Numbered from the stretch's first letter, positions 11,495 to 55,272 are shown. The stretch: 64,000 nt of DNA from an uncultured Thermoleophilia bacterium (GCA_963749535.1 CAVVNF010000021.1:3413-67412), one strand, 5' to 3'. The notes: generated by a model from the sequence alone, not told the origin. Program-made: numbers and translations.

Positions 11495-11495
11495 G

Positions 11496-38084: not shown

Positions 38085-38155
38085 GCCACACGAGTGACGA
38101 GCACACGCTCAAAAAGGGTGGCTGACTTACAAAGCGATCATCCGATACTTAGCCC

Positions 38156-39427: not shown

Positions 39428-39525
39428 ACCGTTACAGGCCTCCGCTCCCGGCCGCTTCAAGGTTGAGCGGAAATCCCGTCCGGAACTGTGCACCAATCGT
39501 CGGCGTCCGGACACATAAGGGGTGA

Positions 39526-40884
39526 GTGAATCTTTCCAGGAGGACCGACGTGAAGTGTTGGGCAGGGCGCTCAGTTCTCTTGTTGCGAATACTCGCCGCG
39601 TGTCTCGCCGCATCCGCTGCACTTCTGCTTTTCGGTTGCGGCCAGGCCTCGCCGTCCGCTGAGTCCTCGTCTTCCGCTCATTCTCTGCAATCCACCCAGT
39701 CTTCACTTTCGGTCGGCTCCGCTGGCAGCCGACCGATATCCGGCAAGCCCTTCGAGATCTATCGCGTCACGGCCCAAGAGGACTTCTGGGAGAGTTGGAT
39801 CTCGGGAGATACAGTCGTTTGGCTCGAAAGTCCAGGACCGGGGACCGGCGCCGGTTACGGCATGATCTCCGCCGCGGCAAGCTCCGGCACCATCCTTCGC
39901 TCCTGGTCGCCGGAGACCGGAAAAGTCGAAGATGTCCCCGGCTCCAAGCTCGCAGCCCCAGATCTGCCGCCCGAAGGCGCCACGTACATGTCGACACTAC
40001 CGAGTTCCTGGGCTGCCGTCCTTTCCGGCGGCACTGGAACTCCGAAGGTCGTCTGGGCGGAAGGACCGAAGGAACTCGGGGACAACTACATCTTTCGCGG
40101 GCTCTGGAGCTGGGTCCCCGGCACCGAGCCGAAGCAGCTTCTCCCCGAGTCTTTCGGCTCTAGCACCCATCTTGCCGCCGGAGACGCGCTCGCCATATTC
40201 GTTCCCTCTGCTGCCTTCCTTTCTCACCCGCAGAATCATGACCCATCTGACCCGGCTAGTTGGCAGAAGGTCCTACTCATGACAGCGAACATGGATGCCC
40301 CGATCGAGGTCGACCCCTCCCACCCCGAACTGCCTGCTTCAGCCTTAGAGGGACTTTCCCCCTACTTCTCGTTCTGGTCGGGGACGTCGCCGGGCCAAGA
40401 CGTCTACGATCTGCGGACCGGTGCCAAGCTCGCGGTCCGCGTACCGGACCAGGGTTCGCTCATAGCCGGTCACTGGGCGGCCTCGTACAAAACTGATCCG
40501 TCCTTCGGCCGCACGAACAACGTGGATATCGTCCTCACCGACTTGGAGACGGGCGAGTCGAAGACAGTGACGAGCTTCGGCGTCGAGCAGTACTACTCGC
40601 CCGTTTTCGCGCTGAGCGCGGACTGGTTGGTAGTCCTGAAGCCAGGCAAGGAAGTCCCGACCAACGTCGACTCGACCACCACTCTCCCGGACCAGCACAT
40701 CGGCGCCGACCTGGTCGCCGCAGGCCCGGAGAGCCAGCGCAGTCCGCGCCAAAGCGGCACCTGCCGAGCGAGTGGCTCGAGCTACCCCACCCGGTGCTCT
40801 TTGCGCACCACCTTACGCGCCCCGGCGTGCCACGACGTGCTCCAATCCTTGGGCGGAACCACTTCATCCAGCCGGTCCAGCTGA
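39526..40884 (+). CDS. secreted lipoprotein, hypothetical (3' end uncertain)
   Basis: 452-aa ORF with a signal peptide and lipobox (AASAALLLFGCGQ), then a Ser-rich linker. The last ~35 codons overlap the convergent metV gene and look non-native. Confidence 0.6.
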   Translation: MNLSRRTDVKCWAGRSVLLLRILAACLAASAALLLFGCGQASPSAESSSSAHSLQSTQSSLSVGSAGSRPISGKPFEIYRVTAQEDFWESWISGDTVVWLESPGPGTGAGYGMISAAASSGTILRSWSPETGKVEDVPGSKLAAPDLPPEGATYMSTLPSSWAAVLSGGTGTPKVVWAEGPKELGDNYIFRGLWSWVPGTEPKQLLPESFGSSTHLAAGDALAIFVPSAAFLSHPQNHDPSDPASWQKVLLMTANMDAPIEVDPSHPELPASALEGLSPYFSFWSGTSPGQDVYDLRTGAKLAVRVPDQGSLIAGHWAASYKTDPSFGRTNNVDIVLTDLETGESKTVTSFGVEQYYSPVFALSADWLVVLKPGKEVPTNVDSTTTLPDQHIGADLVAAGPESQRSPRQSGTCRASGSSYPTRCSLRTTLRAPACHDVLQSLGGTTSSSRSS

Positions 40885-41453
40885 TCGATGCTCTTGAGGC
40901 GCGTGTAGATGAGTTGCCAGGCACAGGGGCGATCCGGGTCCACCTCGCAGTGCGTCTCGGTCGAGCCCCCGCAGGGGCCGTTCAGGAGCCGCTTGGCGCA
41001 GCGCGTGACGGGGCAGATGCCGCCGAACTGGGCCAGCATGCAGTCGCCGCAGCCCAGGCATTTCTCGGTCCAGATCGCCTGCTCCTCCAGAGTCCCCATG
41101 AACTGGGTGTTGAGTCCGGCGTAGACGGGCTTGTCGGGGAATCTCTCGGCGATGGCCTGCACGCCCACGCCGCAGCCGAACGAGACGATGGCGTCGACGT
41201 CAACCGCCGGCTCCGCCAGATCCTTGATGAATTCGTTCTCGCACTGCCGCTCGATGGTCACCTGGGTCAGCTCCAGGGCTTCGCCGTCAAGCCTGCGCGC
41301 CATGCGGATGGCGTAGGAGGCAATGCCCACCTCACGCTCACCACCGGCCAGGCATACCGTGACGCAGGTGCCACAGCCCACGAACAGCACCTTGCTGTGA
41401 CCCGCGATGAGGTTCTTCACCTCGGTGATCGATTTCGGGGAAGCGACGATCAT
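40782..41453 (-). CDS. metV: methylene-THF reductase-associated zinc-ribbon/Fe-S subunit MetV (MTHFR C-terminal-domain family)
   Basis: 223-aa ORF with cysteine clusters (GCGTCVTVC, CLGCGDC) and the hallmark LLNGPCGG motif. It shares an ATGA start/stop overlap with mvhD. Confidence 0.85.
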   Translation of the reverse strand: MIVASPKSITEVKNLIAGHSKVLFVGCGTCVTVCLAGGEREVGIASYAIRMARRLDGEALELTQVTIERQCENEFIKDLAEPAVDVDAIVSFGCGVGVQAIAERFPDKPVYAGLNTQFMGTLEEQAIWTEKCLGCGDCMLAQFGGICPVTRCAKRLLNGPCGGSTETHCEVDPDRPCAWQLIYTRLKSIDQLDRLDEVVPPKDWSTSWHAGARKVVRKEHRVG

Positions 41454-41947
41454 GATGTTCCTTCACTTTCCAATTGCCGGGTCTCCCTGAGCGGGCTCGG
41501 CCCCAGCGCCTTGACCGTGTCAACCATCTCCTGCACGCTCTCGACGAAGGTGGGGGCCATGGCGGCCGAAAGGTTCACCATCTTGAGCCGTTCGTCCCCG
41601 ACGCCGATCTCGGCGAGCATCTCGCGGATGCGGTCCGTGCGCTTGCGCGCGCGCAGGTTGCCCTCGAGGAAGTGGCAACCCCCTTCCAGGCAACCAGCCA
41701 CAAGAATCCCGTCGATGCCCTTCAGGAAAGCCTCCAGGATATGCTCCATCTCGATCTTGCCGGTGCACGGCGCGTGGATGATGCGAACGTTGGCCGGGTA
41801 CTGCATCCGCTTGGAGCCCGCAAGGTCCGCCGCGGCATACGCACAGTAGTTGCAGCAGAAGGCGATGATCTCGGGTTCCCAGTCGGCGCCGAGCGTCGCC
41901 GCGGTCGCGGCCGCTTGCATCATCTCGGGCATCACAGCCTCGCTCAT
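41450..41947 (-). CDS. mvhD: MvhD/FlpD-like [2Fe-2S] electron-transfer subunit
   Basis: Start placed at ATG 41947 (MSEAVMPEMM), forming an ATGA overlap with the hdrA stop. The track ORF extends to 42148. Motifs: IIAFCCNYCAYAAADLAG, IHAPCTGKIE and LVAGCLEGGCHFLEGN. Confidence 0.85.
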   Translation of the reverse strand: MSEAVMPEMMQAAATAATLGADWEPEIIAFCCNYCAYAAADLAGSKRMQYPANVRIIHAPCTGKIEMEHILEAFLKGIDGILVAGCLEGGCHFLEGNLRARKRTDRIREMLAEIGVGDERLKMVNLSAAMAPTFVESVQEMVDTVKALGPSPLRETRQLESEGTS

Positions 41948-44900
41948 AGCCGCGCTCCATCCACCAACAGCTCGTCCAGCATGGCGACCAGCGCCTCGTC
42001 TTCCTGGTGCTGCAGGGTGATCGTCCTGGCCGGGCAGGAGGCCGCGCAACTGCCGCAGCCCATGCACATCGCGCCCTGGATCTCGGCCTTCATAAGCTCG
42101 TTGATCATGGGAGCGCCGTATGGGCAGACCTTGACGCAGGTGGCGCACGCCACGCAGTTCTCCGGATCGACCTTGGCCACCTGTCCGGGGATCTCAAGGA
42201 ACGCCTTGGACAGGACCGTCGTGGCTCGTCCGACTGTAGCCTGGGCCTGGGCGATGGTCTCGTCCATGAACCGGGGCGAGTGGGCTAAGCCGCAGAGAAA
42301 CTCGCCCTCGTTGGCCAGATCCACCGGCCGGAGCTTGGGATGCGCCTCGAGGAAGAATCCGTCGGCGGTGAGGGCACTGCGCAGCAGTCCGGACAGCACC
42401 GGGTTGCCGGCGGCCGGAGCAATGCCGGTGGAGAGCACCAGCAGATCGGGCCGCAGCACCAACTCGCGGTTGCTCGACGCGTCGTGCACGGTCACCTGGA
42501 GCCGTCCGCCTTCCTCGACCACGATCGGGTCGCCCTTTTCGGGATGGCGCACGAACAAGATCCCTTCTTCTCGGGCCTTCTGGAAGAACAGCTCCCGGAA
42601 TCCGTACGTTCGGATGTCCCGCCCCAGTACCGCCACGTTGGCGTCGGGCACAAGGCGCTTGATCTCCAGCGCGTTCTTGACCGCTTCGGAGCAGCACACC
42701 CGGCTGCAATAGCCGTGCTCCTCGTTGCGGCTCTCCACGCACTGGATCATCACCACGGTGGGACTCTTCTTGCCTTGCAGCTCAGGCGGAAGATCGCCCC
42801 CGGCCAGCACGGCCTCCAGCTTGCTCTGGGTAGTCACGTGCGGGTTCTTGCCGTTGAGGTACAGGTCGGTGGAGCGCTCCTGGCCGCCCGTCGCGACAAT
42901 AACGACTCCGTGACTGATTGGCAGCTCGCTCCCGGCCACGTTGAGAACGCTCTTGAAGTTGCCGACGTGTCCGGTGATGCTCGCAGCGGTGGTGCTCAGA
43001 TAGACCTCGATGCCGGGATGGGCTTCGACCTTGTCCACCAATCGCTGAAGATACGCCTCAACGTCGGCACCCTCGAGCGTGGTGTGCACATCGCGAAGCA
43101 ATCCGCCCAGGGCGGGCTCCTTCTCCACCAAGTGCACGTCGAACCCTTGGTCGGCGATGCCCAGCGCCGCGGTCATGCCGGCCAGTCCGCCGCCCAGGAT
43201 GAGCGCTGAGGCCGTCACCGGCAGTCGCCCGGTCTGCAGGGCCCTCAGATGCCGCGCCCGTGCCACCGCCATAGCCATCAGGTCGACGGCCTTTTCGGTA
43301 GCGGCGACGGGGTCGTCCTTGTGGACCCAGGAACATTGGTCGCGGATATTGGTCATCGCGAACAAGTACTGGTTCAGCCCGCTCTCGCGCAGCGTCTCCT
43401 GGAAGAGGATCTCGTGGGTCCGCGGCGAGCAGGAGGCCACGACCAGCCGGTTGAGCCGGTGCTTCTCGATCATGTCCTTGATGTGCTGCTGGTTGGTGTC
43501 CGAGCAGGTGTACATGCTGGCTTCGGCGTGACGCACGTTGGGCATGAGGGACGCCCTCCGGGCCACTTCCTCCACGTCGATGACCGACGCGATGTTCTGG
43601 CCGCAGTGGCAGATGAACACGCCCACCCGCGGCGCTTCGTCGGTGGTATCGCGCTCCCAGGGGTATTCGTGCCGCTGGATCAGATTGCCGCGGGCTTGGG
43701 CCAGTTGGTCCATGGCGCACGCCGCGGCCGCCGACGCCTGGGCCACCGATTCGGGGATGTCCTTCGGCTCCTGGAATGCTCCGGCCACGTAAAGGCCCGG
43801 TTTGGACGTCGCCAGCGGAGCCAGCCGCTCGGTCTGGGCAAAGCCGAACTCGTTGAGCTCCAACCCCAGCCGTCCAGCGGTTTGCCGGACACTGGCGGGA
43901 ACCTGCATGCCCACGCTGAGCACCACCAGGTCGAACTCCTCCTGCCGTTCGATCCCCGCCTCGTCGAAGTAGCGTATGCGCGGGTTCTTAGTGCCGGGCA
44001 TCTCGACCACCCGCGAGGGGATGGCCCGGATGTACTTCACACCGTGCTCGTCGCGAGCGCGGTTCACGTAGCTATCGAACTCCTTGCCGAAGGCGCGCAC
44101 GTCCATGCAGAAGATGGATACTTCCAAATTCTGGCCACGCGCGTGCTCTAAGGCGACCATGGCCTCCTTGGTGGCGCTCATACAGCAGATGGACGAGCAA
44201 TATCCGTTGCCTCGGGCGGCGTCGCGGCTGCCGACGCATTGGATGAACGCGATGCGTTCTACCTCACCGCCGTCCGAAGGCCGCTGGACATGTCCGCCGG
44301 TGGGACCCGCGGCCGAGAGCATGCGCTCGAATTGGACGCTGGACAGCACGTTCGCGTAGCGCCCGTGGCCGAACTCCCCGCGCAGAGAACCCTGGAACTC
44401 CTCGAAGCCGGGAGTCAGGATCACACTGCCGGCATCGATCTCGATCTCCTCGGGTTGCTGGTCGTGACACACCGCGCCGGCCGTGCAGACCTTGACGCAC
44501 TGCATGCATTCACTGCAAAGTCCGCAAGCGAGACAACGCTTGGCCTCCGCGACGGCCTGATCCACGCTGTAGCCCAGGTCGATCTCGGTGAAGCCGTCCA
44601 CGCGCCCAGATGGGTCGGCTTGCGGCATCTTCACGCGCTCCTGCCGCGGGGCGTCGGGCGTGGGGTTCTTGGCCTGCTCCACCGGATTCTCGGCCTCCGC
44701 CGCGCCGGAAGTCGCTGCCAGCTTGGCCCCTCGTAGGTAGGCGTCGATGGCCTCGGCGGCCTTGTGACCGTGCGCCATTGCATCGACCATAGAGGCCGGT
44801 CCCAGCACCGCGTCGCCGCCTGCGAACAGACCCGGGACGCCGGTGGCGAGCGAATCTTGGTCGGCCACGATCCGCCCGCCGGGGCCGGTGGCCACGCCCA

Positions 44901-46530
44901 GCCCGGCTGAGTCGATTCCCTGGCCGATGGTAACGATCACCGTGTCAGCAACCAGAACGGCGGTCCGCAGATCGTCGAACTGGGGATTGAAACGCCCCTG
45001 CTCGTCGAACACGCTGGTGCAGGCCCGGAAGGACACTCCCGACACCTTGCGCCCGCTCGTCTCGATCCGCGTCGGCCCGAGGCTGTTGTGGAAGACGACT
45101 CCCTCCTCAAGCGCCTCGGCTGCCTCCCAGGAGTGGGCCGGCATCTCCGCGCGACTCTCGAGACACGCCAGATGTACCGAAGACACACCGGGCAGCCGGC
45201 GGGCGCAACGCGCGGCATCCATGGCGACGTCGCCGCCGCCGATAACCAAGACGGTGGACCCGAGAGCCGGTGTCTCACCACTGTTGACCCGGCGCAGGAA
45301 ATCGAGACCCTCCCAGACGCCCGTAGCCTCTTCGCCGGCGATGCCCAGTTTCCGGCTCACCCAGGCTCCCGGCGCTGCGAAGACAGCTTTGAACCCGGAC
45401 TCCAGGAGACCCGCCGGGTCGGCGACGCGCGTGCCCGTCTTGGCCTCCACGCCCAAGTCGAGGATGTACTGGATCTCCTTGTCCAAGACGTCCTTGGGCA
45501 GTCGGTAGCTGGGAATGCCGTATCGCAGCATGCCCCCCAGGTGCGGCTGAGCCTCGAACAAGGTCACGCCATAGCCCAACAGGGCCAGGTCGGAGGCCGC
45601 CGTCAGGCCGGCCGGGCCGCCGCCGATGACTGCGACCTTGGCATCCAACTTGACGGCGGCGGGCTTGGCCGGCGGATACTCGCTCGGATTCGACTCAATG
45701 TAGTCGGCGACGAACCGCTTGAGATCGCGCACAGACACGGCCTCGTCGATCTCGCCGCGATTGCAGCTATCTTCGCAAGGATGCTGGCAGACCCGTCCGC
45801 ACGCAGCCGGGAGCGGGCAGCGCTCACGGACCAGCTCGTAAGCCTCCTTGAACTTGGACGCGGCAATGAGAGCCACGTAGCCTTGAGCGTTGACGCCGGC
45901 GGGACAGGATGACTTGCACGGCGCGCGTCCCGCGGCCTTAGAGATACCGAAGACGTTCGGAATCGCCTGTGGGTAGGGGCGGAAGATCGCCTTCCGCGTG
46001 CCAAGCCGGCGGTCGAACTCGCTTGGCAGATCGACCGGGCAGGCATCGGTGCAATCACCGCATGCGTTGCATTTGGCCAGATCCACGTAGCGCGGGTTCT
46101 GGCGCAGCTTCACCTTGAAGTTGCCCGGCTCGCCCGAGATCCCCTGCACGTCGGCCAGCGTGATGATTTCGATGTTCTTGTTCCGCGCGCATTCCACCAG
46201 CTTGGGCGAGATGATGCACATTGCGCAGTCGCCGGTGGGGAAGGTCTTGTCCAGTTGTGCCATCCTCCCACCGATCGCGGGCGAGGAGTCCACCAGATAG
46301 ACTTTGAAACCGCTCTCGGCGAGGTCCAGGGATGCCTGAATGCCGGTGATGCCGGCTCCGCAGACGAGTACGGCGCCTACGGCCTCGGGGCCGTTGGCTC
46401 CATTCCCATTCGGTCCCTTCCCGTTGCCTCCGGTGTGGCCGCTCATGGCCGCACCTCGGCCTTGGTTCGTGCCTCGGCCCTGTTTCGTGGCTCGGCCCTG
46501 TTTCGTGGCTCGGCCCTGTTTCGTGCTCAC
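41944..46530 (-). CDS. hdrA: giant HdrA-like flavoprotein: HdrA module interrupted by a GltD/NfnB-like NAD(P)H oxidoreductase module, followed by a second complete HdrA module
   Basis: 1528-aa uninterrupted ORF. aa ~50-200: FAD fold (VLVCGAGITGIQASLDLAESG) plus a ferredoxin motif (CNACGDCTDACP). aa ~200-605: GltD-type N-terminal Fe-S region (RERCPLPAACGRVCQHPCEDSCNRG) and two dinucleotide folds (VAVIGGGPAGLTAASDL...GMLRYGIPSYRLPK; VLVIGGGDVAMDAAR; LFAGGDAV). aa ~660-950: rest of HdrA-1 (FIQCVGSRDAARGNGYCSSICC). aa ~965-1528: HdrA-2 (VFICHCGQNI, ILGGGLAGMTAALG, MIQCVESRNEEHGYCSRVCC, C-terminal 2x[4Fe-4S] CVACATCVKVCP / CMGCGSCAASCP). Confidence 0.9.
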   Translation of the reverse strand: MSTKQGRATKQGRATKQGRGTNQGRGAAMSGHTGGNGKGPNGNGANGPEAVGAVLVCGAGITGIQASLDLAESGFKVYLVDSSPAIGGRMAQLDKTFPTGDCAMCIISPKLVECARNKNIEIITLADVQGISGEPGNFKVKLRQNPRYVDLAKCNACGDCTDACPVDLPSEFDRRLGTRKAIFRPYPQAIPNVFGISKAAGRAPCKSSCPAGVNAQGYVALIAASKFKEAYELVRERCPLPAACGRVCQHPCEDSCNRGEIDEAVSVRDLKRFVADYIESNPSEYPPAKPAAVKLDAKVAVIGGGPAGLTAASDLALLGYGVTLFEAQPHLGGMLRYGIPSYRLPKDVLDKEIQYILDLGVEAKTGTRVADPAGLLESGFKAVFAAPGAWVSRKLGIAGEEATGVWEGLDFLRRVNSGETPALGSTVLVIGGGDVAMDAARCARRLPGVSSVHLACLESRAEMPAHSWEAAEALEEGVVFHNSLGPTRIETSGRKVSGVSFRACTSVFDEQGRFNPQFDDLRTAVLVADTVIVTIGQGIDSAGLGVATGPGGRIVADQDSLATGVPGLFAGGDAVLGPASMVDAMAHGHKAAEAIDAYLRGAKLAATSGAAEAENPVEQAKNPTPDAPRQERVKMPQADPSGRVDGFTEIDLGYSVDQAVAEAKRCLACGLCSECMQCVKVCTAGAVCHDQQPEEIEIDAGSVILTPGFEEFQGSLRGEFGHGRYANVLSSVQFERMLSAAGPTGGHVQRPSDGGEVERIAFIQCVGSRDAARGNGYCSSICCMSATKEAMVALEHARGQNLEVSIFCMDVRAFGKEFDSYVNRARDEHGVKYIRAIPSRVVEMPGTKNPRIRYFDEAGIERQEEFDLVVLSVGMQVPASVRQTAGRLGLELNEFGFAQTERLAPLATSKPGLYVAGAFQEPKDIPESVAQASAAAACAMDQLAQARGNLIQRHEYPWERDTTDEAPRVGVFICHCGQNIASVIDVEEVARRASLMPNVRHAEASMYTCSDTNQQHIKDMIEKHRLNRLVVASCSPRTHEILFQETLRESGLNQYLFAMTNIRDQCSWVHKDDPVAATEKAVDLMAMAVARARHLRALQTGRLPVTASALILGGGLAGMTAALGIADQGFDVHLVEKEPALGGLLRDVHTTLEGADVEAYLQRLVDKVEAHPGIEVYLSTTAASITGHVGNFKSVLNVAGSELPISHGVVIVATGGQERSTDLYLNGKNPHVTTQSKLEAVLAGGDLPPELQGKKSPTVVMIQCVESRNEEHGYCSRVCCSEAVKNALEIKRLVPDANVAVLGRDIRTYGFRELFFQKAREEGILFVRHPEKGDPIVVEEGGRLQVTVHDASSNRELVLRPDLLVLSTGIAPAAGNPVLSGLLRSALTADGFFLEAHPKLRPVDLANEGEFLCGLAHSPRFMDETIAQAQATVGRATTVLSKAFLEIPGQVAKVDPENCVACATCVKVCPYGAPMINELMKAEIQGAMCMGCGSCAASCPARTITLQHQEDEALVAMLDELLVDGARL
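46454..46525 (-). repeat. four tandem 18-bp repeats at the hdrB/hdrA junction, encoding (TKQGRA)-like hexapeptides if translated
   Basis: Plus-strand units: cctcggccttggttcgtg, cctcggccctgtttcgtg, gctcggccctgtttcgtg, gctcggccctgtttcgtg. They sit between the GTG at 46530 (GTGA overlap with the hdrB stop) and an alternative ATG at 46446. Confidence 0.9.
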
Positions 46531-47420
46531 TTTTCGTGCCTCCTGCTTCGTGTCTCAGGCCCGGAGAACCCTATTGATTCCAGAAGTTCTTGCGGCTCCA
46601 CGACAAGGCTTTCGAGCGACACCTCACTCGTTGAGCAACCCATGGCCAGGCCAAGCAATTGCGTGAAATAGAAGATCGGTAGGTTGTACCGGCGTCCGTA
46701 CTTGGCCTCGATGTCCTTCTGCCGCATATCCAAGTTGAGCTGGCAAAGCGGACAGGCGGTCGCGATGCAGCCGACCTCGGCGGCCTGCGCCATCGATAGG
46801 ATCCTGTCGCTCAGTTCCAGGACGATGCTCGAGTCGGCGATGGAGAAGCTCGCCCCGCAGCACTCGGTCTTGTGCGGCCAGTCCACGACCGTGGCTCCGG
46901 CGGTCTCGAGAAGCTGGTCCATCAGCGTGGGGTTCTCCGCGTCGTCGAACTGCGTGACTTCGGGCGGACGCGACAGCAGGCAGCCGTAGTAGCAGGCCAC
47001 CCTGAGCCCAGTTAGCGGGCGGCGGATGGCCGCGGCGACTCCCGGCCCCACGTCCCGGCCCAATATCTCCAACAGATGCCGGACCGGCGTCTGGCCGTCG
47101 TAATCTCCTCCGATCACCTGCGCGACCTTGATGCGCGTGCCGACGTCGCCGGCGATGTGGTGATTGGCCATCTTTAGGCGGCTGTAGCAGGCGGCGCATG
47201 CTACGGCGACAGTCCGCCCGCGAGCCGCACGCAAGTTTTGCGCCGGCAACGCGTCGGCTAGGAGAGGATCGCTGCTGTGGGCGGCAGTCGAACCGCAACA
47301 TATCCAGTCCTCTAGCTCGGGCAGCTCCAACCCCAACTTGGCTGCTACAGCCAGTGTCGAGCCATGGAAATCTTTGGCTGTGCCATCAAGCGAACAGCCC
47401 GGGAAGAAGGTGTAGCTCAA
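46527..47420 (-). CDS. hdrB: heterodisulfide reductase subunit B-like (two CCG domains)
   Basis: Start placed at TTG 47420, preceded by AAGGAGG and forming a TTGA overlap with the hdrC stop. The track ORF extends to 47765. Motifs: YTFFPGCSL, WICCGSTAAH, YYGCLL, KTECCGASFS and ACPLCQLN. Confidence 0.85.
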   Translation of the reverse strand: MSYTFFPGCSLDGTAKDFHGSTLAVAAKLGLELPELEDWICCGSTAAHSSDPLLADALPAQNLRAARGRTVAVACAACYSRLKMANHHIAGDVGTRIKVAQVIGGDYDGQTPVRHLLEILGRDVGPGVAAAIRRPLTGLRVACYYGCLLSRPPEVTQFDDAENPTLMDQLLETAGATVVDWPHKTECCGASFSIADSSIVLELSDRILSMAQAAEVGCIATACPLCQLNLDMRQKDIEAKYGRRYNLPIFYFTQLLGLAMGCSTSEVSLESLVVEPQELLESIGFSGPETRSRRHEK

Positions 47421-48001
47421 GGCTCGCCTCCTTGTGTTGCCCGGCGAAACAGTTTCTCGCGCTCTTTCCGCCCGCCGACCCGCGGGCCCAGCAACGGCAG
47501 TTTGCCCTTTGCCATCATCATGGGCGCCTTGCTGGCATCCTCGAAGAGCCGCCTGGTGCGCAGCTTGAATTCGGCCATCAACCCCAACTCGTACACCCGG
47601 CCGCGCTTGCGAACGCTTTTCAGAAATGCGTCGTTGAACACGGGAACGGCCGTGCCCGCCGCCGCCAGTCCCTCGCTCAGGCTGAGTGCCCGCAGCGCGT
47701 CGTTCATGGCGGGGATGTCCACATTCTGCGGGCAGCGCGTGATGCACGTCTGGCACGACGTGCACTCCCAGATAAAGCGACTGGTGAGCACCGACTCGCG
47801 CTGGTCCATCTGTACAAGCCGTACGACCTCATGTGGTTTGAGATCCCCGCGGTTGGCGACCGGACAGCCGCTGGAGCACTTCGAACATTGCAGGCAGCTC
47901 ATCGGCGAGGCGCCGCTCGAAACCTTCACCTCGCTGGCCAGGCTGCCGCCGATCTCTTCGATCTCTATCGTTACCTGGGTCACCGTCGTTGCCGCGGTCA
48001 T
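47417..48001 (-). CDS. hdrC: heterodisulfide reductase subunit C-like (2x[4Fe-4S])
   Basis: Start placed at ATG 48001 (MTAATTV), forming an ATGA overlap with the upstream stop. The track ORF extends to 48736. Motifs: CLQCSKCSSGCP and CTSCQTCITRCP. Confidence 0.85.
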   Translation of the reverse strand: MTAATTVTQVTIEIEEIGGSLASEVKVSSGASPMSCLQCSKCSSGCPVANRGDLKPHEVVRLVQMDQRESVLTSRFIWECTSCQTCITRCPQNVDIPAMNDALRALSLSEGLAAAGTAVPVFNDAFLKSVRKRGRVYELGLMAEFKLRTRRLFEDASKAPMMMAKGKLPLLGPRVGGRKEREKLFRRATQGGEP

Positions 48002-49407
48002 TTCTTCTCCTCCGACCCAGCCAGCACCGATAACTTGACGGCACTGACCTTGCGATAGACCTCCTGCGGGATCCGAAGCTCGCCGTCGACCCTCAGCAGG
48101 TCCTCCACCCGGATGCCGAATAGTCGCTCGTTCTCTTCCAAATAGCCGCGGATCAGCCGCCAGTCCTTGTCGTCCAGTGGCGAGAACACCCCACCATTGA
48201 GCTGGCGCTCGACCACCTTGTAATGCGGGTCGCGGATATAGATCGCGCCGCCGCTCGCCAGAGAGAACAGGTTGCTGCCCGGGTACGGAGCCGCCTGGGG
48301 AACCATGCGGCCGCATCCGTCGAACTCGATGCCGTTCAGGATGACGAACCCGCCGCCGGCCAGAGGATCCCCGGCCATGAACGACTCCGCCAGGAAGTCG
48401 AGACAGGTGCCGTTGATGACCACCCGTGGTCGTCCCACGGCGTTGATCAACGGCCGGCCCGCCCCGTTGCCCAAGACGAACACGTCGCCGCCCTTGGCGC
48501 CATACATGAAAGTCTGTCCCACGTCGCCGTAGATCACCAGCTTGCCGCGCTTGGCGATCTGGGCCACCTGGTCTTGGGCGTTGCCGTGAATGTGCAGCTC
48601 CAGGCCGTCCATGCCACTGGCGGTGTAATCGCCGTTGGAGCCGTAAAGATCGATGCGCACGCCGTCGGTTCTCGCGCCCAGACCCACTCCGTGGAAGCGT
48701 TGTCCCCGCAGCCGATAGACGACGAACCGCTTCCACCCCGCCCGGTACGCCTCACGCAGCAGGACCGCGTCGCAGTCGTCGCCCTCGGGCGGGAAGCCCT
48801 GGCTATCGAGGCACAGCAGCTCCTCGCCGGACCGCGGAGCCGCCACCCGATCACGGGTGTCCCAGGTGATCCGCCGCCAGAAACCCGCCGTAGGATCGCC
48901 AAAAAGCGGGGCGGCGTCGAAGAGTTGGTCGAGTGTCTCCTCGATCACCTGGATAACCGTCGCGCGGCGTTTGTCTCCGGTCGGGAAGGGCCGGTCGTGA
49001 AGCTTCGTTAGCGTCTCGATGGCCGCGGCGCACGATCGGGAGTTATCCGCCCCTGCCAGCACGGTCTGGCAGAACCGCCGCAGCCGGCCGGCCGGCCAAG
49101 AGGGCATTTCCCGGGCCTCGGCGATCAAAGCCTCCACCTCACCTCGGCGCAGCATTTCATGGATGCCGGCCGCGGTCAGAGCTTGGATGGGCGCACCGCC
49201 GGGCGGCGATCCCTCCTGGTGGCTCTCGATGCCCGCCGGGCCAGTCGTCAAGCCGGTCACCGGGTCAGCCGCCGAGTCAGCCGGTACGTCGCAGCGCACC
49301 GTGCCCGTGTCGCACTTGACCTCGTGGCCGAACTTGTTGGTGCACGAGAGCCGCATGTGCTCGACTGTCGCCGTCGCTCCCCGGCGCCACGGTGAAGATG
49401 AACGCAC
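47998..49407 (-). CDS. GXGXG-motif protein (glutamate synthase alpha-subunit C-terminal domain / FwdC / MgsB family) with ~200-aa N-terminal extension
   Basis: 469-aa ORF. It has a beta-helix repeat region: LRGQRFHGVGLGARTDGVRIDLYGSNGDYTASGMDGLELHIHGNAQDQVAQIAKRGKLVIYGDVGQTFMYGAKGGDVFVLGNGAGRPLINAVG. The 5' end overlaps the upstream amidotransferase ORF by ~130 nt in another frame, so this is either a fusion broken by a frameshift at ~49390 or a separate gene. Confidence 0.75.
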   Translation of the reverse strand: MRSSSPWRRGATATVEHMRLSCTNKFGHEVKCDTGTVRCDVPADSAADPVTGLTTGPAGIESHQEGSPPGGAPIQALTAAGIHEMLRRGEVEALIAEAREMPSWPAGRLRRFCQTVLAGADNSRSCAAAIETLTKLHDRPFPTGDKRRATVIQVIEETLDQLFDAAPLFGDPTAGFWRRITWDTRDRVAAPRSGEELLCLDSQGFPPEGDDCDAVLLREAYRAGWKRFVVYRLRGQRFHGVGLGARTDGVRIDLYGSNGDYTASGMDGLELHIHGNAQDQVAQIAKRGKLVIYGDVGQTFMYGAKGGDVFVLGNGAGRPLINAVGRPRVVINGTCLDFLAESFMAGDPLAGGGFVILNGIEFDGCGRMVPQAAPYPGSNLFSLASGGAIYIRDPHYKVVERQLNGGVFSPLDDKDWRLIRGYLEENERLFGIRVEDLLRVDGELRIPQEVYRKVSAVKLSVLAGSEEKK

Positions 49408-50683
49408 CCCCGTCTGTCGACGAGCCGCCTCGAGCGTTCCAGTATTTGTCGGCCACCGGACAGAAGCGCGGATCGTCCTCCGCCAGGCTCCGCAGAGTTG
49501 CGTCGATGGCCTGCTTTTCCGAGCAGATCAGGCCGATCTGGACTTCGCCGCTGTCCGAGAGCGCGAAGACCTGCGGGCGCAGCATGGCCGTGTCGGTGAT
49601 GCCCAGCAACTGGAACCGGTCGCCCTGGCTGCGGGCGATGATGAAGAACCAGGGACCATCCGGCGACGCATGTATGTGGGTCGCCTGGATCTCCCGGTAA
49701 ATGAGCTGCTTCTCCGGCGGCAGCTTGTCGAAATCCAGCTCGGTGGTGGGAGCCAGCGCCTCGATGATGTACTCGAGTCGATACTTGTAGACGCGGTCCC
49801 ATAGGTCGAAGAGCTGGACGGACACCTCCGTGTCCGTGAGGAACTGCTGCCGGATATTGCGCTGGCGCAAGTACTCGCAGACCGAGTGGTAGTTGGCGAA
49901 GTCGCCGTTGTGTACCAGCGCCTCGTTCATGCCGACGAACGGGTGAGCTCCTCCGGGGTGCCACACGCGGCCCTTGGTGGGATAGCGCTGATGGGCGATC
50001 CACACATGGGCCTTGAAATCCTCGAGTTGGTAGTACTCCACGTTTTGCTCGGCGTATCCCACCATCTTGAAGACCAGCAGATTTCTCGAATGAGAGAGCA
50101 CGAAGGCACGCTTTTCGCCCAGCGACGCGTAGTACTCATCGTTGAGCCGGTAAGAGTTGCGCCACACGAACTCGTCTTCCAGCGCGCGCGGCGCGAGATC
50201 TTGCAGCCCCGTCGCCTCGGCGAAGGTCTTCAGGACACTCGGCTTCACGCGCGCCACATAGCGGTGAACGTCTGGCGGACGGACCTCCAGCCCGGCGATG
50301 TCGCGATAGTCGTCGACGTGCGGCTGCCGCGTGGCCAGGGCGATGTCGAAGTTGGGCAGGATGAACTCCCGCTCCAGCTCGGCATGGCAGTCGGTATCGA
50401 GCAGGGCTATCTGGAGCAGATAGTGACTTGCGAGCATCTCGTCGGTGATGCCCAGTTGCTCGGGAACGAGGCCCGCCGCCGCGATGCCGCCGCCTTTGCC
50501 GTTGCCGCGGTTCTGCATCTGCTTCGACGGCTCGTAGATGAATCGCCCTTTCACCGGCACCGTGCAGGCAAAGCCGGTTACGCCGCACCCGCCTTCCTCT
50601 ACGCGCTCGGATCCGATCGGCTCTTCGGGACCCGAATAGACCTGCGACCGGCTGGCCAACAGACGTTCGGCGGATTCGCTCAC
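49277..50683 (-). CDS. class II (Ntn-type) glutamine amidotransferase-like protein (glutamate synthase domain-1 / MgsA family)
   Basis: Start placed at GTG 50683, forming a GTGA overlap with the upstream stop. The candidate nucleophile Cys sits in EEGGCGVTGFAC after a ~30-aa leader. Other motifs: NRGNGKGGGIAA and AHQRYPTKGRVWHPGGAHPF...ALVHNGDFANY. Confidence 0.75.
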   Translation of the reverse strand: MSESAERLLASRSQVYSGPEEPIGSERVEEGGCGVTGFACTVPVKGRFIYEPSKQMQNRGNGKGGGIAAAGLVPEQLGITDEMLASHYLLQIALLDTDCHAELEREFILPNFDIALATRQPHVDDYRDIAGLEVRPPDVHRYVARVKPSVLKTFAEATGLQDLAPRALEDEFVWRNSYRLNDEYYASLGEKRAFVLSHSRNLLVFKMVGYAEQNVEYYQLEDFKAHVWIAHQRYPTKGRVWHPGGAHPFVGMNEALVHNGDFANYHSVCEYLRQRNIRQQFLTDTEVSVQLFDLWDRVYKYRLEYIIEALAPTTELDFDKLPPEKQLIYREIQATHIHASPDGPWFFIIARSQGDRFQLLGITDTAMLRPQVFALSDSGEVQIGLICSEKQAIDATLRSLAEDDPRFCPVADKYWNARGGSSTDGGAFIFTVAPGSDGDSRAHAALVHQQVRPRGQVRHGHGALRRTG

Positions 50684-52381
50684 GGGGACACCTCCCCGGC
50701 CATGGCCGGCTCGTCGCTGAGGTAGCACAGCACGTCGCTACGCCCTCGAAGCTCGCGGATCGACGCCATCCCCAGGTGCCCGAGCACCACCAGCATCTCC
50801 TCGCGCCAGGCATTGTTGAGGTTGATCAGCCGCTGTGTGGCCCACTCGAGGCTCATCTGCATCATCATTTCGGGGTCGGTGGTAGCGATGCCGCGCGGGC
50901 AGCCCCGGCCGCTCTCGCAGCAGGCACAGCGCACGCAGCCCAAGGCCACCAGCTCGGCCGTGCCGATCACCACGCCGTCGGCGCCCAAGGCGATGGCCTT
51001 CAACGCGTCGTAGGCCGTGCGGATGACCGCCGGAGGCGATTAGCGTGATCTGATCCCGGATTCCTTCGGCGACCAGGAACTTGTGCACCTTGGGGATGGC
51101 GTACTCGATGGGCATGGCGATGTTCTTCTTGGCGATGTCTGGCGCCGCGCCGGTGCCGCCGTAGCTGCCGTCCAGATGGATGATGTGCGCTCCCGCGTAG
51201 TAGCTGCCCACCGCCACCATATCCACGTCGGTGGGCGTCGAGACCTTCACGCTCACCAGACAGTCAGGGTTCACTTCCTTGATCCAGTCCACGTGCTTCT
51301 TGTGGTCTTCCACGCTGTAGACGCTGTGGAAGGGGAACGGGCTGAACAAGGCGTTGCCGGCCACGGCCTCGCGCATGCGGGCGACCGGCGGCGTGTTCTT
51401 GTCGCCCAGCAGATGGCCGCCCAGGCCCGGCTTGGCGCCCTGCGCGTACTTGAACTCCACGATCCGCACGCGCTGGATGGTCTCCTCGCGCACACCGAAC
51501 AGGCCCGTGGCGACTTGCGTGATCACGTGGTCGTCGTAGGGCCTGAGGCGGTCGTGGTACCCGCCCTCTCCAGTGCAGGTGAAGCTGTTCCAGGCCGCAG
51601 CCGCGCGGGCCTTCGCCAGGATCGTGTGGATGCTCACCGAGCCGAAGCTCATCCCGCCCCCGTACATGGGGATGTCGAGATGGACTTGCGGCCGGCCGTC
51701 GCCGCGTCGGTTCAGATCCAGACCCGTGTCGATTTCGACGGCGCTGCCGGGCCGGCGGCGACTCGGCGGCGTGACCGAGGCTGCGCGTCGAGGCGGCGCG
51801 GCGACTACCCGGGCCGGAGCCTTCGATTTCGTCGCTTGGAACTTGAAGCGCAGCCTGTCGAACCCGCCGCCCGAAGCACCGTGCCGATATTCGAGATGCG
51901 GCGGCGCGGCATGCCCGGTGGCGGCCTGATGCCAGGTGGACAGGATCAGATCGCTCGACCAGCGCGGATCGCCCATGCAGTCGGCAGCGGGATTGCGCCG
52001 CATCGTGAGCGCCTTCTGAGGGCACTGCGCCACGCATGACTCGGCCGTCTCCGCGCACTCCGGGCCGATGCACAAATGGTCCTGGGGCCGAAGAGTGAAG
52101 GCATAGCCCTCGGGCTTGACATGCACTCCATGACGGCACACCTCCACGCACCGGCCACACGATGCGCACCGAGCCAGGCGGTCGATCTTGTACTTGCCCA
52201 AGACGTTGCGGTAGCGATCGGGGGCCGGGCGGATCTCCCGGTCGACCTGCCCCTGCGGCCATGCGCTCTGGCCCAGATGCGAAGCCGATGCCTGCGCAGG
52301 CTCGTCCCGGACTTCGGCCGAGACTTCGCCCGCAGCTTCGACCGGGACTTCGCCAGGAATGGTTGCCGCGTCCATCGTCAT
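50680..52381 (-). pseudogene. ferredoxin-fused glutamate synthase FMN-domain (domain-2) protein, catalytic-looking paralogue (one frameshift as assembled, ~51000)
   Basis: Start at ATG 52381, forming an ATGA overlap with the upstream stop. N-terminal Cys motifs: CASCGRCVEVC and CIGPECAETAESCVAQCP. TIM-barrel motifs: IPMYGGGMSFGSVS, VEFKYAQGAKPGLGGHLLG, HLDGSYGGTGAAP and LIASGG. After the shift, ORF 50680..51003 reads ALGADGVVIGTAELVALGC...CCESGRGCPRGIATTDPE. Confidence 0.8.
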
Positions 52382-53802
52382 GCACACACCTGACCCTGAG
52401 ACACGCGGGCCAGATCGCCGAATGCCTCCTTCTCGATATCCTCCATGAAGATGGCTCGTCCCACTTCGCCACGAAGGCGGCGGACTTCGCGGATGCCCAT
52501 GGCGCCCAGCACCTCGATGAGCTGGCTGTGCCACGCGCCCATGAGGTTGACCATGCGCTGGGCAGCGTAGGCAGAATCGCCCGAACCGATCTCGGCCGGG
52601 CAGGCGTTTTCGGAGTTGCATCGGCGGCCCTCACGGCACACCCGGCAGCCCAGAGCCACCAGAAGCGGTGTGTCCACGGCTACCAGGTCGGCCCCGCAGA
52701 TGATCGCCTTGGCCATGTGCTCGGCCAGGGCGATCCCGCCGGAGATGATCAGCGTGACCTCGTCGCGGAGCCCTTCTTTCACCAGTCGCCCGTGGACCTC
52801 GCGGAGGGCGTCCTTGATGTGCCGGCCGGGGCGCCCGTCATCCAGCAGCTCGCGCCCGTGCTGGTCGGCGCAGAGTTGAAAGACCTTGACGCCCGTCCGG
52901 CCCAACTCGACGATGCGGTCGGCTGTCGCGTGACACAGCACCAAGCGGACGGAGACCACCAACTGCTTGTGGGCGGCTTGGATCTCGCCGGCCAACTCCG
53001 CCGTATCCGAACCGTCAACCACTTGCACCATGCGCACGGCTTGGAGGAGGTCCTGGCTCCGTTCGATGTCGTCTTTGCCCAGCAACGGGCACCGCGAACG
53101 GCAGTAACTCTGGCGGCAGCGCGGACGCATCGGCTGCCGGCATCACGGCCACGGAGCTGAGCTTCATGGCCGCCACAGCGCGGGCAGCAGCCATGTGCTC
53201 GCTCTCAACCGGCCAGGCCGGCATGTCTAGGATCGCCGGAAGCTGGATCTCCAGCAGATGGGAGGGCGGAGTGAGCAGCTTGCCGTCGGGGGCGAACCTC
53301 AGGCGCATGGGCTTGGGGCCGATGTCCACCGAGGTGGAGATGTACTCGCGACCGTGGATTCCGTCGCGCGTGGGCCGGACGATCTCCGACATGTCCGTCC
53401 AGATGGAGTCGAAACCAGGGCCGTAGAACCGTCCGCGATAGCCCGCCCCGGAGACGGGGATCCTGCCGGCATCGGACTGGTTCCAGGTGGTGAGAATGAT
53501 GTCGGGCTTCCAGTACTCGTCGCCCATGTCCAGGAACTCCGGGTTGACCGAGATGCTCAGCAGTCCCTTGGTGCAACCCTGGACGCAGGACAGGCAGGCC
53601 TTGCATTCGTTGAGCGTCTGGACCGAGGCCAGCGGGTCGCGGTTGTAGGTCGCTTCGTTCCGGTAGACGTCATAGAGGCAACGCAGCTTGACGCAGTTGG
53701 TGCAGCGGGAGCAGTCCTCGCGCCAGTCGACGTTGCCGAACTTGCCCACCCGGCGGAACCGCGGGCCGTGGGAACGGCGTGAATGTGGTAGCGGTCGGGC
53801 AT
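52378..53802 (-). pseudogene. ferredoxin-fused glutamate synthase FMN-domain-like protein, degenerate paralogue (two frameshifts as assembled, ~53780 and ~53110)
   Basis: ATG 53802 (MPDRYHIH) matches the PDRY segment of the downstream paralogue. It then shifts to ORF 53015..54253 (RFRRVGKFGNVDWREDCSRCTNCVKLRCLYD...CKACLSCVQGC...IPVSGAGYRGRFYGPGFDSIWTDMSE). The C-terminal half is in 52378..53130 (LIISGGIALAEHMAKAIICGADLVAVDTPLLVALGC...ACPAEIGSGD). The GGTGA and KPGxGG motifs are not recognisable. Confidence 0.7.
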
Positions 53803-53814
53803 GCCTACGTCCCC

Positions 53815-54677
53815 TTACGCCAGTCCGGCTGCCTCGATCACCTGGCCGGCAAGCGCTTCGCAGCCGCCGCTGAGGATGTGGATGCCGCGGACGCCCGGCA
53901 TCGTCTTGAGCTTGGCGGCTATCTCGGCTGCCATGGCCAGGCCCTCCTTGGCCGCGTCGGGGGCGCTGGCCAACCGGGCGACCACGGTTTCGTCGAGCGG
54001 TCCGTAGGTCTGCTGTTGCCGCAGGTGCTCGGCCTGCTCGACGCTGGTCAGGGGCAGCACGCTGGCGATGATGGCCGCCCGCTTGTCCAGTCCGGCCGCC
54101 CGAACCGAATCCATCCACCGAGTGAAGCCGGCAAGGTCGAACACCGGCTGCGTGAGCAGGAAGTCCGCCCCGGCCGCGATCTTCTTCTTGAGCCGGAGCA
54201 GGTTCAGCTCCATCGGCTGCTGATGGGGATGGGCCACCGCCCCGACCAGCCATCTCCGCGCGAGATCCAAACCCTTACCATCTGGGCTTGCGCGAGCTGG
54301 GTGGAGTCGATGTCGTTGACCCCGGCCGCCTGGGGACAGACCCCGAGAGACTGGTGATTGCCGCTGAGGCAGAGGATAGCGCCGATGCCCAGTGCCGCGG
54401 CCCCCAGAGCATCGCTCTCCAAGGCGATGCGGTTGCGGTCGCGGGTCACCATGGACAGAACCGCCTCGCGGCCTTCGCGGGCCAGGAGAGCCGCACACGC
54501 CAAGGCCGAACCGTGGATCTCGTCGGGGTTGTCCGCCACCACCACCGCGTCCAGGCTCGGCGACAGCGCGGCCGAGAGCTTCTTGACAGCCTCCGCGCCG
54601 CCGGTGCGCGGCGGCAGGCACTCGGCCGTTAGAACGAGTTTGCCGGAGGTCAATGCCTCGCCGAACTTAGTCTTCAT
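53815..54677 (-). pseudogene. metF: methylenetetrahydrofolate reductase, small acetogen-type MetF (one frameshift as assembled, ~54260)
   Basis: ATG 54677 (MKTKFGEALTSGKLVLTAECLPP...VVVADNP...LSMVTRDRNRIALESDALGAAALGIGAILCLSGNH) in ORF 54204..54785. It continues in ORF 53815..54621 (LVGAVAHPHQQPMELNLLRLKKKIAAGADFLLTQPVFDLAGF...). The start overlaps the upstream gene by 11 nt. Confidence 0.8.
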
Positions 54678-55272
54678 TGGCGTCATCGCTGGTATCCAGT
54701 TCTTGGTAAGGGTCCTCGGCCGCTTCGGGTACATCGATGTCGAAAGGAGTGGGGGCCAGGCCGTCCAGCGCCAGCAACACTGCATCCCGGATGGCCGCGA
54801 CCCGGGCGTCCCCGGCTTCGGCCGTGCAAACCGGCACGGATCTTCCTGCGCCCAGCGCCATGTCTTCGGTGGCAGTGCCAGGCAGGTGAAAGAGCATCAA
54901 ACGCTCCCCTCCAAGCCCAATCTCGTCGAGGATCGCCCGAAGATAGTCCACCCGGCGAGCGCATCGCATGCTGCCTTCCAGGTAGTGACAGTTGTCCTCC
55001 TGGCACGCGACCGCGCAGACCAATCGGGCGCCGGACTCAAATGCCTTCAGGACGTGCTCCGGCTGGATCCGCCCCGTGCAGGGCACCAGCACTTCCCGCA
55101 CCGAAAAGGGCCAATCGAACCTCGGGACGATCGGACGCGACCGATCACCGGAGTTCGGCGCCTCGCTCGGCCGCGCGCAATTCATGCAGACAAAGGCCGT
55201 CACGATCGTGGCGTCGGCGGCGGAGTCGGTCGGCTGCTCAACATCGGAAAGAATCGATGGAGGAGCCATCAA
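54667..55272 (-). CDS. divergent MvhD/FlpD-like protein (first gene of the operon)
   Basis: 201-aa ORF with VTAFVCMNCARP, VLVPCTGRIQPEHVLKAFESGARLVCAVACQEDNCHYLEGS and an acidic C-terminal tail. GAGGAAGGG lies upstream of the ATG at 55269. Confidence 0.7.
   Translation of the reverse strand: MMAPPSILSDVEQPTDSAADATIVTAFVCMNCARPSEAPNSGDRSRPIVPRFDWPFSVREVLVPCTGRIQPEHVLKAFESGARLVCAVACQEDNCHYLEGSMRCARRVDYLRAILDEIGLGGERLMLFHLPGTATEDMALGAGRSVPVCTAEAGDARVAAIRDAVLLALDGLAPTPFDIDVPEAAEDPYQELDTSDDANED

Follow-up and report, generated by a model that had tools for sequence, protein, structure and literature searches.

We analyzed a 64,000-nucleotide (nt) stretch of DNA from an uncultured Thermoleophilia bacterium (GCA_963749535.1, CAVVNF010000021.1:3413-67412), hereafter the window, and concentrated on a run of ten minus-strand genes that joins glutamate-synthase-like (glt-like) genes to metF, metV, mvhD and hdrCBA. 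On balance, we favor the reading that this operon specifies a glutamate synthase (GOGAT) split over several proteins and rich in iron-sulfur clusters, a complex that is fed by NADPH, may bifurcate electrons, and serves nitrogen assimilation.

Layout of the operon

The coding run is co-directional on the minus strand from 55272 to 40782 and gapless in a frame plot of GC content at third codon positions (GC3). The initial annotation, made from the sequence alone, had counted eleven genes; there are ten, since the amidotransferase and GXGXG open reading frames (ORFs) form a single gene in all homologues. Listed from the 5' end, with flavin mononucleotide abbreviated as FMN, they are:

54667..55272, minus strand: flpD/mvhD-like gene for a small iron-sulfur protein of about 200 amino acids (aa); Pfam FlpD, 3.5e-24; likely start ATG at 55269, after GAGGAAGG
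53815..54686, minus strand: metF, for a MetVF-type flavoprotein resembling methylenetetrahydrofolate reductase (MTHFR); Pfam MTHFR, with its halves in two frames
52378..53802, minus strand: FMN-domain paralogue A (FMN-A), about 475 aa; Pfam Glu_synthase, 4.3e-16, on the C-terminal part, and a weak Fer4_9 match
50680..52381, minus strand: FMN-domain paralogue B (FMN-B), about 565 aa; Pfam Glu_synthase, 5.6e-62, with 3.1e-20 in the next frame
47998..50683, minus strand: fusion of a class II, N-terminal nucleophile (Ntn), amidotransferase to a GXGXG domain, about 890 aa; GATase_6, 1.5e-7, GATase_2, 0.0048, and GXGXG (PF01493), 4.9e-12
47417..48001, minus strand: hdrC, 194 aa; Pfam Fer4_17/Fer4_8; NCBIfam HdrC models at 1e-15 to 1e-16, under cut-off
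46527..47420, minus strand: hdrB, 297 aa, with two CCG domains; Pfam CCG, 2.6e-22, in two stretches; TIGR03288, 1.5e-51, under cut-off
41944..46530, minus strand: giant HdrA (HdrL, or type III HdrA), 1528 aa; assigned from Pfam, NCBIfam and motif positions
41450..41947, minus strand: mvhD, a canonical FlpD of about 165 aa; Pfam FlpD, 4.5e-48, over the whole profile; ATGA overlap at both ends
40782..41453, minus strand: metV, 223 aa; Pfam DUF5981 'MTHFR C-terminal', 1.5e-37; 80% identity to MetV of the related locus L002

Profile annotation bore out every domain that had been named beforehand, the amidotransferase weakly. Seven junctions are 4-nt start/stop overlaps (ATGA at 41450-53, 41944-47, 47998-48001 and 52378-81; GTGA at 46527-30 and 50680-83; TTGA at 47417-20), exactly as first listed, and most are preceded by a GGAGG resembling a Shine-Dalgarno sequence. 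A consensus scan of positions 40300-56000 found neither a sigma-70-like promoter nor a convincing intrinsic terminator, with nothing above shuffled sequence. Because of the seven overlaps and the lack of an internal promoter or terminator signal, the cluster stands as a probable translationally coupled operon of ten genes, as had been proposed for one co-translated unit. The previously noted 12-nt spacer is the metF/FMN-A junction, with the FMN-A ATG at 53802. An 11-nt overlap had also been noted; with a metF start at 54677 it falls between flpD and metF, and it becomes 20 nt with the ATG at 54686, which orthologue N-termini favor. No sigma-54 -24/-12 element was seen by eye upstream of flpD, and an Rfam search of the whole window at gathering thresholds gave no riboswitch or other RNA. 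The cluster proteins carry only generic names in the database sources examined, and a look-up of window MetV found no exact-sequence record.

Glutamate-synthase-like subunits

FMN-B is the likely catalytic subunit, judging by its motifs. It combines an N-terminal ferredoxin-like domain with an FMN/3Fe-4S domain of the GltS type, and its orthologue from L002 aligns to residues 857-1189 of the Azospirillum GltS alpha subunit (2VDC/1EA0; E=1.9e-51) and keeps KxAQGAKPGxGG, DGxxGGTGA and the three 3Fe-4S cysteines. The KxAQGAKPGxGG loop covers what we take to be the equivalents of Lys972 and Gln969 of the ferredoxin-dependent glutamate synthase (Fd-GltS) of Synechocystis, and the Arg992 equivalent is also kept. 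These motifs are consistent with the GOGAT-like reaction put forward in the initial annotation.

FMN-A pairs two ferredoxin-like CxxCxxC motifs, at its N-terminus, with a Glu_synthase barrel that is degenerate. The consensus of 58 orthologues is without the KxAQGAKPGxGG and DGxxGGTGA substrate/flavin loops, and it keeps a strictly conserved block, VSGAGYRGPFHGPGFDSMWTDMSEIVRPTRDGIHGREYIS, together with the C-terminal phosphate-binding and Cys region. FMN-A weakly matches Glu_syn_central (2.8e-4), but a degenerate Glu_synthase paralogue describes it better. We read it as a putative scaffold or electron-transfer subunit, perhaps in place of the GltS central domain.

Homologues of the amidotransferase-GXGXG protein are full-length single proteins called at 770-820 aa, with PF13522 (GATase_6) and PF01493 (GXGXG). 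When an 812-aa fusion orthologue was aligned to the window by tblastn, residues 1-406 matched in frame -1 (50518-49310) and residues 388-812 in frame -2 (49350-48007), so the two ORFs are evidently one gene, split by a 1-nt indel near 49364. The description of the locus as a complete but disassembled synthase module, with every alpha-subunit domain on an ORF of its own, therefore survives in part: the module is split over proteins, but its amidotransferase and GXGXG domains are fused and FMN-A is without catalytic loops. The Ntn Cys motif EEGGCGVTGF stands in frame after about 35 aa in 81 of 84 loci, the window included, which fits an Ntn amidotransferase with a propeptide; a propeptide is also a feature of bacterial GltB. 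Most public calls of this family (P0001-P0120) begin at an internal Met (MQNRGNGKGG...) and omit both the propeptide and the catalytic Cys, a systematic start-site mis-annotation in databases. In a PDB sequence search the top match of the GXGXG domain was FwdC (5t5i), the fusion protein as a whole matched FwdC and GlmS fragments alone, and MetV had no match.

Conservation of the gene set

More than 2000 proteins matched the GXGXG ORF in a homology search, and a pattern scan for relatives of the fusion protein, over one genome per GTDB species, placed them in at least 597 species-representative genomes. We examined the best-scoring 80 of these loci. All were from metagenome-assembled genomes (MAGs), sampled in soil, sediment and the subsurface, and they covered nine or more phyla, among them Acidobacteriota, Actinomycetota, Myxococcota, Chloroflexota, Planctomycetota, Desulfobacterota, Latescibacterota, Armatimonadota and Nitrospirota. 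Gene order was determined by tblastn of the ten query proteins against all loci.

FMN-A and FMN-B were both present in all 60 loci with enough upstream sequence, and in most related loci the cluster opens at its 5' end with a FlpD/MvhD-like gene, which precedes FMN-A by two or three genes. Among the 44 loci with full flanks, MetF and MetV occurred in 41, HdrL in 29, and HdrBC in 24, always together with HdrL; the remaining 3 had no MetF, MetV, HdrL or HdrBC. At least four gene orders were found (FMNA and FMNB denote the two FMN-domain genes and GATGXG the fusion gene):

Window type: FlpD-MetF-FMNA-FMNB-GATGXG-HdrC-HdrB-HdrL-MvhD-MetV
Type without HdrCB: the window-type order minus HdrC and HdrB
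Type without any Hdr: L005, an Acidobacteria MAG
Type 2: MvhD-MetV-MetF-FMNA-FMNB-GATGXG, in Desulfobacterales, Dehalococcoidia and others
Type 3: MvhD-FMNA-FMNB-GATGXG-MetV-MetF
Bare module: FMNA-FMNB-GATGXG alone, in a few loci

Because this gene membership outlasts reshuffling across phyla, it is strong evidence, at the level of synteny, that the glt-like proteins are functionally coupled to MetF, MetV and MvhD. The glt-like genes and their partners had been proposed to form one unit, and the linkage is indeed kept in related hdr-met clusters. The same proposal suggested that the unit could be a bifurcating supercomplex; the association between the glt-like and MetVF genes is the conserved part of it, while the Hdr proteins are an optional extension, missing from about a third of the complete loci. 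The loci nearest to the window by Hdr protein identity are L018 and L030; together with the SLH and LytR-type genes of the window, they make an Actinomycetota source probable.

Two kinds of locus depart from the common arrangements. In L038, L039 and L049, from some Chloroflexia and Ca. Desulfofervidaceae MAGs, the bare module has no MetF, MetV, MvhD or Hdr gene within 10 kb and is flanked by unrelated thiolase, aldo-keto reductase and aldolase genes. L083, from a Ca. Desulfofervidaceae MAG, reads HdrL-MvhD-MetV-MetF-FlpD-FMNA-FMNB-GATGXG over positions 1452-12415, with a Moorella-like hdrA-mvhD-metVF block immediately upstream of the glt module; this arrangement may be close to an ancestral juxtaposition.

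Genomic neighborhood

ORFs next to the clusters, called heuristically, were gathered into two pools and scanned with Pfam: the closest three on the upstream side, from loci with flanking sequence there (141 proteins), and the closest two on the downstream side (114). Upstream, the most frequent families were P-II (9), Ammonium_transp (8), Sigma54_activat (5) and Gln-synt_C (4); downstream, they were the small (5) and large (2) chains of CPSase. The top 25 families of either pool included none of the one-carbon (C1), folate or Wood-Ljungdahl pathways, and none of the sarcosine-oxidase, DAO, GCV_T or SoxG types. Among individual loci, the order in L040 is glnA-mvhD-FMNA-FMNB-GATGXG-carA, and two amtB-glnK (P-II) pairs lie immediately upstream in L008. 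The Gln-synt_C neighbors in L040, L045 and L067 pass the TIGR00653 cut-off for type I GlnA, so they are not gamma-glutamylmethylamide synthetases (GmaS); the fourth, in L061 (790 aa), fails it. The context points to ammonium and glutamine assimilation by glutamine synthetase and GOGAT, not to C1 catabolism or the synthesis of N-methylglutamate (NMG).

HdrL, MetF and the proposed route of electrons

HdrL begins with an HdrA module that has the flavin adenine dinucleotide (FAD) motif GAGITG at residue 58. A GltD/NfnB-like insert (Fer4_20 and Pyr_redox_2, about residues 205-600) follows, as had been recognized from the sequence, with a FAD motif GGGPAG at 303 and a nucleotide site GGGDVA at 431; a second HdrA module has GGGLAG at 1113, and the C-terminus carries two [4Fe-4S] motifs. 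GGGDVA conforms to GxGxxA, as in NADPH-dependent GltD, and GxGxxA is a rule of thumb for the NADPH type. Such giant HdrA proteins are named HdrL in Desulfobacterota (PMC2702500, PMC5947623) and type III HdrA in archaea (PMC12054007). The available portions of these three papers link HdrL to DsrC, sulfate respiration or methane metabolism, and they report no GltB-type (glutamate synthase alpha subunit) or MetVF genes next to it.

The 5' end of window hdrA holds an 18-nt tandem repeat (46454-46526, 4.1 copies, 92% match) that encodes TKQGRA-like repeats. The HdrA orthologue of L002 starts downstream of it, so the repeat may represent an N-terminal extension specific to the lineage, unless hdrA really starts farther downstream.

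MetF is of the MetVF type, with an RDRNR motif and the PRK08645 MTHFR domain as its top NCBIfam match, and its gene lies about 12.4 kb upstream of metV, with the glt-like and hdr genes between them. The equivalent of Escherichia coli Glu28 is kept in the window (TAECLPP) and in most loci scored. At the position of E. coli Asp120, however, window MetF has Asn (LCLSGNH), and this residue divides the loci: the Asp was kept in 21 of the 22 scorable loci without HdrL (N once), but in only 8 of 28 with HdrL, where N, Y, A, S, L, R, F or E had replaced it. In L083, Tyr occupies the Glu28 position and Glu the Asp120 position. Trimmer and co-workers reportedly found in 2005 that D120N severely slows the folate half-reaction of E. 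coli MetF. The pattern suggests that MetF has a working substrate site where HdrL is missing, and MetF appears to come under relaxed constraint once an NADPH-binding HdrL has joined the operon. Because its Asp120 equivalent is Asn, methyl- or methylene-tetrahydrofolate (THF) chemistry, which the initial annotation had built into its scheme, is doubtful for the window operon; for operons without HdrL the idea fares better. We also considered MetF as a plain NAD(P)H dehydrogenase and judged this less likely; to our knowledge, MetVF-type enzymes do not react with NAD(P)H.

We propose the following scheme for the window. Glutamine would be hydrolyzed at the Ntn Cys of the amidotransferase-GXGXG protein, after removal of the propeptide of about 35 residues. 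The ammonia would be channeled to FMN-B, where 2-oxoglutarate would be aminated and the imine reduced by FMN, with FMN-A and the small FlpD-like protein serving as scaffold and electron wire. Electrons would enter, most likely as NADPH, at the GltD-like insert of HdrL and pass to the synthase FMN through the iron-sulfur clusters of HdrL, MvhD, MetV, FlpD and the ferredoxin domains of FMN-A and FMN-B. The reaction is very exergonic, and the HdrA flavins with HdrBC may use it to reduce ferredoxin as well, by flavin-based bifurcation. MetF and MetV would be the ancestral module for electron input or exchange in this enzyme family. In the window MetF has probably been demoted, with its Asp to Asn change, to a structural or electron-transfer role; in operons without Hdr, where it looks catalytically intact, it would be the entry point, most simply by oxidation of methyl-THF.

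A broader proposal follows the same lines, and we put it forward tentatively, as possible but doubtful: MetVF modules may be the native electron input of a widespread, unrecognized class of glutamate synthase. Members without Hdr, in Desulfobacterales, Dehalococcoidia and others, would be driven by methyl-THF; in members with Hdr, an NADPH-binding HdrA would have taken over and may bifurcate to ferredoxin.

Weighing the alternatives

Several points weigh against the NADPH-fed synthase. Complex membership is deduced from synteny, and the 80 loci compared were the best-scoring ones, not a random sample. Should HdrL be the only supplier of NADPH, nothing explains why MetF, MetV, HdrB and HdrC have been kept. 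No subunit reaches an NCBIfam equivalog cut-off, with PRK11750 (GltB), for instance, at 143-203 bits vs a cut-off of 1047. The amidotransferase is highly divergent (GATase_2 E=0.0048), with GlmS and FwdC, not GltS, as its top PDB matches, and the FMN-B family has His in place of Gln978 of Fd-GltS. The window's own flanks (TetR, FitA, a solute-binding protein with S-layer-homology domains, ZnuA/ABC-3 and LytR) contain no nitrogen genes and give no functional hint, and the five frame changes in the cluster, described below, bear on whether it functions in the source organism.

An extension of the hypothesis for the Moorella MetFV-HdrABC-MvhD enzyme would make the complex a bifurcating double reductase, in which NAD(P)H is oxidized at HdrL and the reductions of methylene-THF at MetF and of 2-oxoglutarate with glutamine at FMN-B together drive the reduction of ferredoxin. 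Translational coupling ties the glt genes to the full hdrC-hdrB-hdrA-mvhD-metV set, in which HdrA has two flavin modules, and the full-Hdr arrangement is the commonest among the complete loci (24 of 44). Nevertheless, we consider this scheme unlikely, since Hdr is dispensable in a third of loci and the catalytic Asp of MetF has mostly been lost precisely where Hdr is present. In addition, the GltD insert of archaeal type III HdrA is argued from models, in the accessible part of PMC12054007, to block the ferredoxin site.

Slightly less likely again is a synthase driven by methyl-THF in the window itself, with electrons passing from MetF through MetV and MvhD to the GltS-like FMN (CH3-THF + 2-oxoglutarate + glutamine -> CH2-THF + 2 glutamate) and with Hdr tuning or bifurcating the flow. 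Operons without HdrL hold just two substrate-reactive redox sites, MetF and FMN-B, linked by iron-sulfur proteins, and their MetF keeps the equivalents of both Glu28 and Asp120. A rough estimate from standard potentials would make this reaction exergonic, by some 100 mV or more. The scheme has to contend, however, with the replacement of the catalytic Asp in the window and in most HdrL operons (as Asn, the substitution reportedly cripples the folate half-reaction of the E. coli enzyme), with the three loci that have no MetVF, and with a neighborhood that is not enriched in C1-pathway genes. There is also no known precedent for a biosynthetic enzyme that relies on a supply of methyl-THF.

Two independent enzymes might instead share an operon and its regulation, namely a methylene-THF reductase of the MetFV-Hdr kind and a split GOGAT that depends on ferredoxin. 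The bare modules of L038, L039 and L049 show that the glt module can stand alone, and the ferredoxin-like domain on each FMN subunit could take electrons from free ferredoxin. We regard this as improbable: MetF and MetV bracket the glt genes from opposite ends of the operon in type 1, their linkage persists in at least three reshuffled gene orders among distant phyla (41 of 44 loci), the junctions are 4-nt overlaps, and a free-standing MTHFR would not tolerate loss of the catalytic Asp.

The initial annotation had also raised a reaction like that of NMG synthase (MgsABC), which would serve methylamine use and pass C1 units to folate. The three domain types do match those of MgsA, MgsB and MgsC, and nearby AmtB-type transporters could carry methylammonium, but this is very improbable given that three of the four glutamine-synthetase-like neighbors are type I GlnA by equivalog cut-off and so not GmaS, that no sarcosine-oxidase-like NMG dehydrogenase is among the top neighbor families, that P-II, the sigma-54 activator and CarAB indicate ammonium and glutamine metabolism, and that FMN-B keeps the 2-oxoglutarate residues of GltS.

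Frame changes in the window

Frameshifts had been suspected in metF and both FMN-domain genes. They are present, and the cluster has five frame changes in all: in metF near 54277, in FMN-A near 53763 and 53085, in FMN-B at 51026, and in the amidotransferase-GXGXG gene near 49364. The metF change falls at GTAAGGG, probably in a short A-run, and the L002 MetF orthologue matches by tblastn with aa 4-145 in frame -3 and aa 143-296 in frame -2. The FMN-A change near 53763 sits in a C-run (GGCCC). Both of these look like homopolymer undercounts. Compared with the related contig L001, the window carries one additional base at 51026 (GGCGG[T]CATCC).

A locus decaying through real frameshift mutations is as improbable as the NMG reaction: all five changes fall within 5.5 kb of the 5' half, with none in the 8.5-kb hdr half, and three lie outside homopolymer runs, but the shifted segments are all open frames with high GC3 periodicity and 54-83% identity to orthologues, and genes unrelated to the cluster are split as well. 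Between 14053 and 18714, a Peripla_BP_6 protein is divided, near 16.0-16.1 kb, into profile positions 1-254 (15956-16996) and 254-325 (15625-16128), a BPD_transp_2 permease, broken near 15.1 kb, has its C-terminal half alone in frame (14637-15095), and a URO-D family protein, broken near 17.6 kb, has its C-terminal third alone in frame (17195-17605). The nearest relative found, L001, an ENA metagenome contig of about 88% nucleotide identity, shows dozens of 1-nt insertions relative to the window. L001, L008 and many Microflora Danica (MFD) loci bear 'contig_N' names, by which we take them to be long-read assemblies. Because unrelated genes are frame-split too and the shifted segments match orthologues, assembly error is the likelier source of the indels.

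Comparison with known systems

A close parallel to the glt-like proteins is bacterial NADPH-dependent GltBD, for instance that of Azospirillum brasilense (1EA0/2VDC/6S6S). Both combine a GXGXG beta-helix and a GltD-type module (NADPH, FAD and two [4Fe-4S] sites) with an amidotransferase of the Ntn class, whose Cys nucleophile follows a propeptide, and with an FMN/3Fe-4S synthase domain that has common substrate motifs. Whereas GltB is a single alpha polypeptide with a free GltD partner, the cluster spreads the alpha subunit over three proteins, fuses the amidotransferase straight to GXGXG, has a degenerate FMN-domain paralogue, perhaps in place of the central domain, and carries N-terminal ferredoxin-like domains on both FMN proteins. 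Its GltD module lies inside the giant HdrA, and MetF, MetV, two MvhD proteins and HdrBC are added.

The methylene-THF reductase of Moorella thermoacetica, MetFV-HdrABC-MvhD, was reportedly described by Mock and co-workers in 2014 with the gene set hdrC, hdrB, hdrA, mvhD, metV and metF. The window has the identical set, keeps the order hdrC-hdrB-hdrA-mvhD-metV, and has a MetF of the MetVF type. Unlike in Moorella, however, the order is not contiguous: metF lies at the opposite end of the operon, next to another MvhD-like gene, and three glt-like genes stand within the set. In addition, its HdrA is the giant form with the GltD insert, and the Glu28/Asp120 pair is broken by the Asn in MetF. The neighborhood of the cluster is one of nitrogen assimilation, not of the Wood-Ljungdahl pathway.

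Archaeal split GOGAT forms have a ferredoxin-like domain ahead of the FMN domain, as in the cluster. Compared by gene content, split forms are without MetF, MetV, MvhD or Hdr partners, the duplicated FMN subunit and the amidotransferase-GXGXG fusion. Like MgsABC, the cluster has the three domain types on separate polypeptides, but it occurs with type I GlnA rather than GmaS and without NMG dehydrogenase genes. Two further likenesses come from the available text of published reports: HdrL or type III HdrA of Desulfobacterium autotrophicum HRM2 (PMC2702500), Syntrophobacter fumaroxidans (PMC5947623) and archaea (PMC12054007) shares the GltD-like NAD(P)H insert, an extra thioredoxin-reductase-like module and the MvhD partner, and Calderihabitans has GltB domains as separate ORFs, named 'glutamate synthase domain 1/2', beside a glutamine-synthetase-like gene (KKC1_RS05235-40, PMC7306483).

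A search of full-text literature, whose coverage leaves out most subscription journals, found no description of GltB-type genes linked to MetVF or Hdr, although it did yield HdrL or type III HdrA, split GOGAT-like genes and F420-GOGAT. A glutamate synthase linked to MetVF and Hdr proteins is apparently an undescribed type, in keeping with the initial view of the arrangement. Glutamate synthase is the main gate of nitrogen into biomass, and its known forms take electrons from NAD(P)H via GltD, from ferredoxin, or from F420. A form that takes electrons in through MetF, MetV and MvhD, whether or not HdrL and HdrBC are added, would give this central enzyme a new architectural class. It also bears on a question in anaerobe bioenergetics, that of the electron partners of MetVF- and Hdr-type complexes; if MetVF is the native input, the synthase would be a physiological redox partner that nobody has considered for them. 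The contrast in the MetF catalytic residue between operons with and without HdrL makes a concrete prediction that can be tested.

Other features of the window

Directly downstream of metV, the window has about 3.6 kb of DNA (37155-40722) that is extra relative to its close relative L001. Three ORFs are found there:

37197-38084: protein with an ATC_hydrolase domain
38156-39427: protein resembling S-adenosylmethionine (SAM)-dependent methyltransferases
39526-40884: ORF of 452 aa with no Pfam match, converging on the metV 3' end with an overlap of about 100 nt

Farther out, the flanks encode a solute-binding protein with two S-layer-homology domains (61799-63046) and a LytR_cpsA_psr protein (23330-24871), which hint at a monoderm-type cell envelope, like that of Actinomycetota or Chloroflexota, in the source organism.

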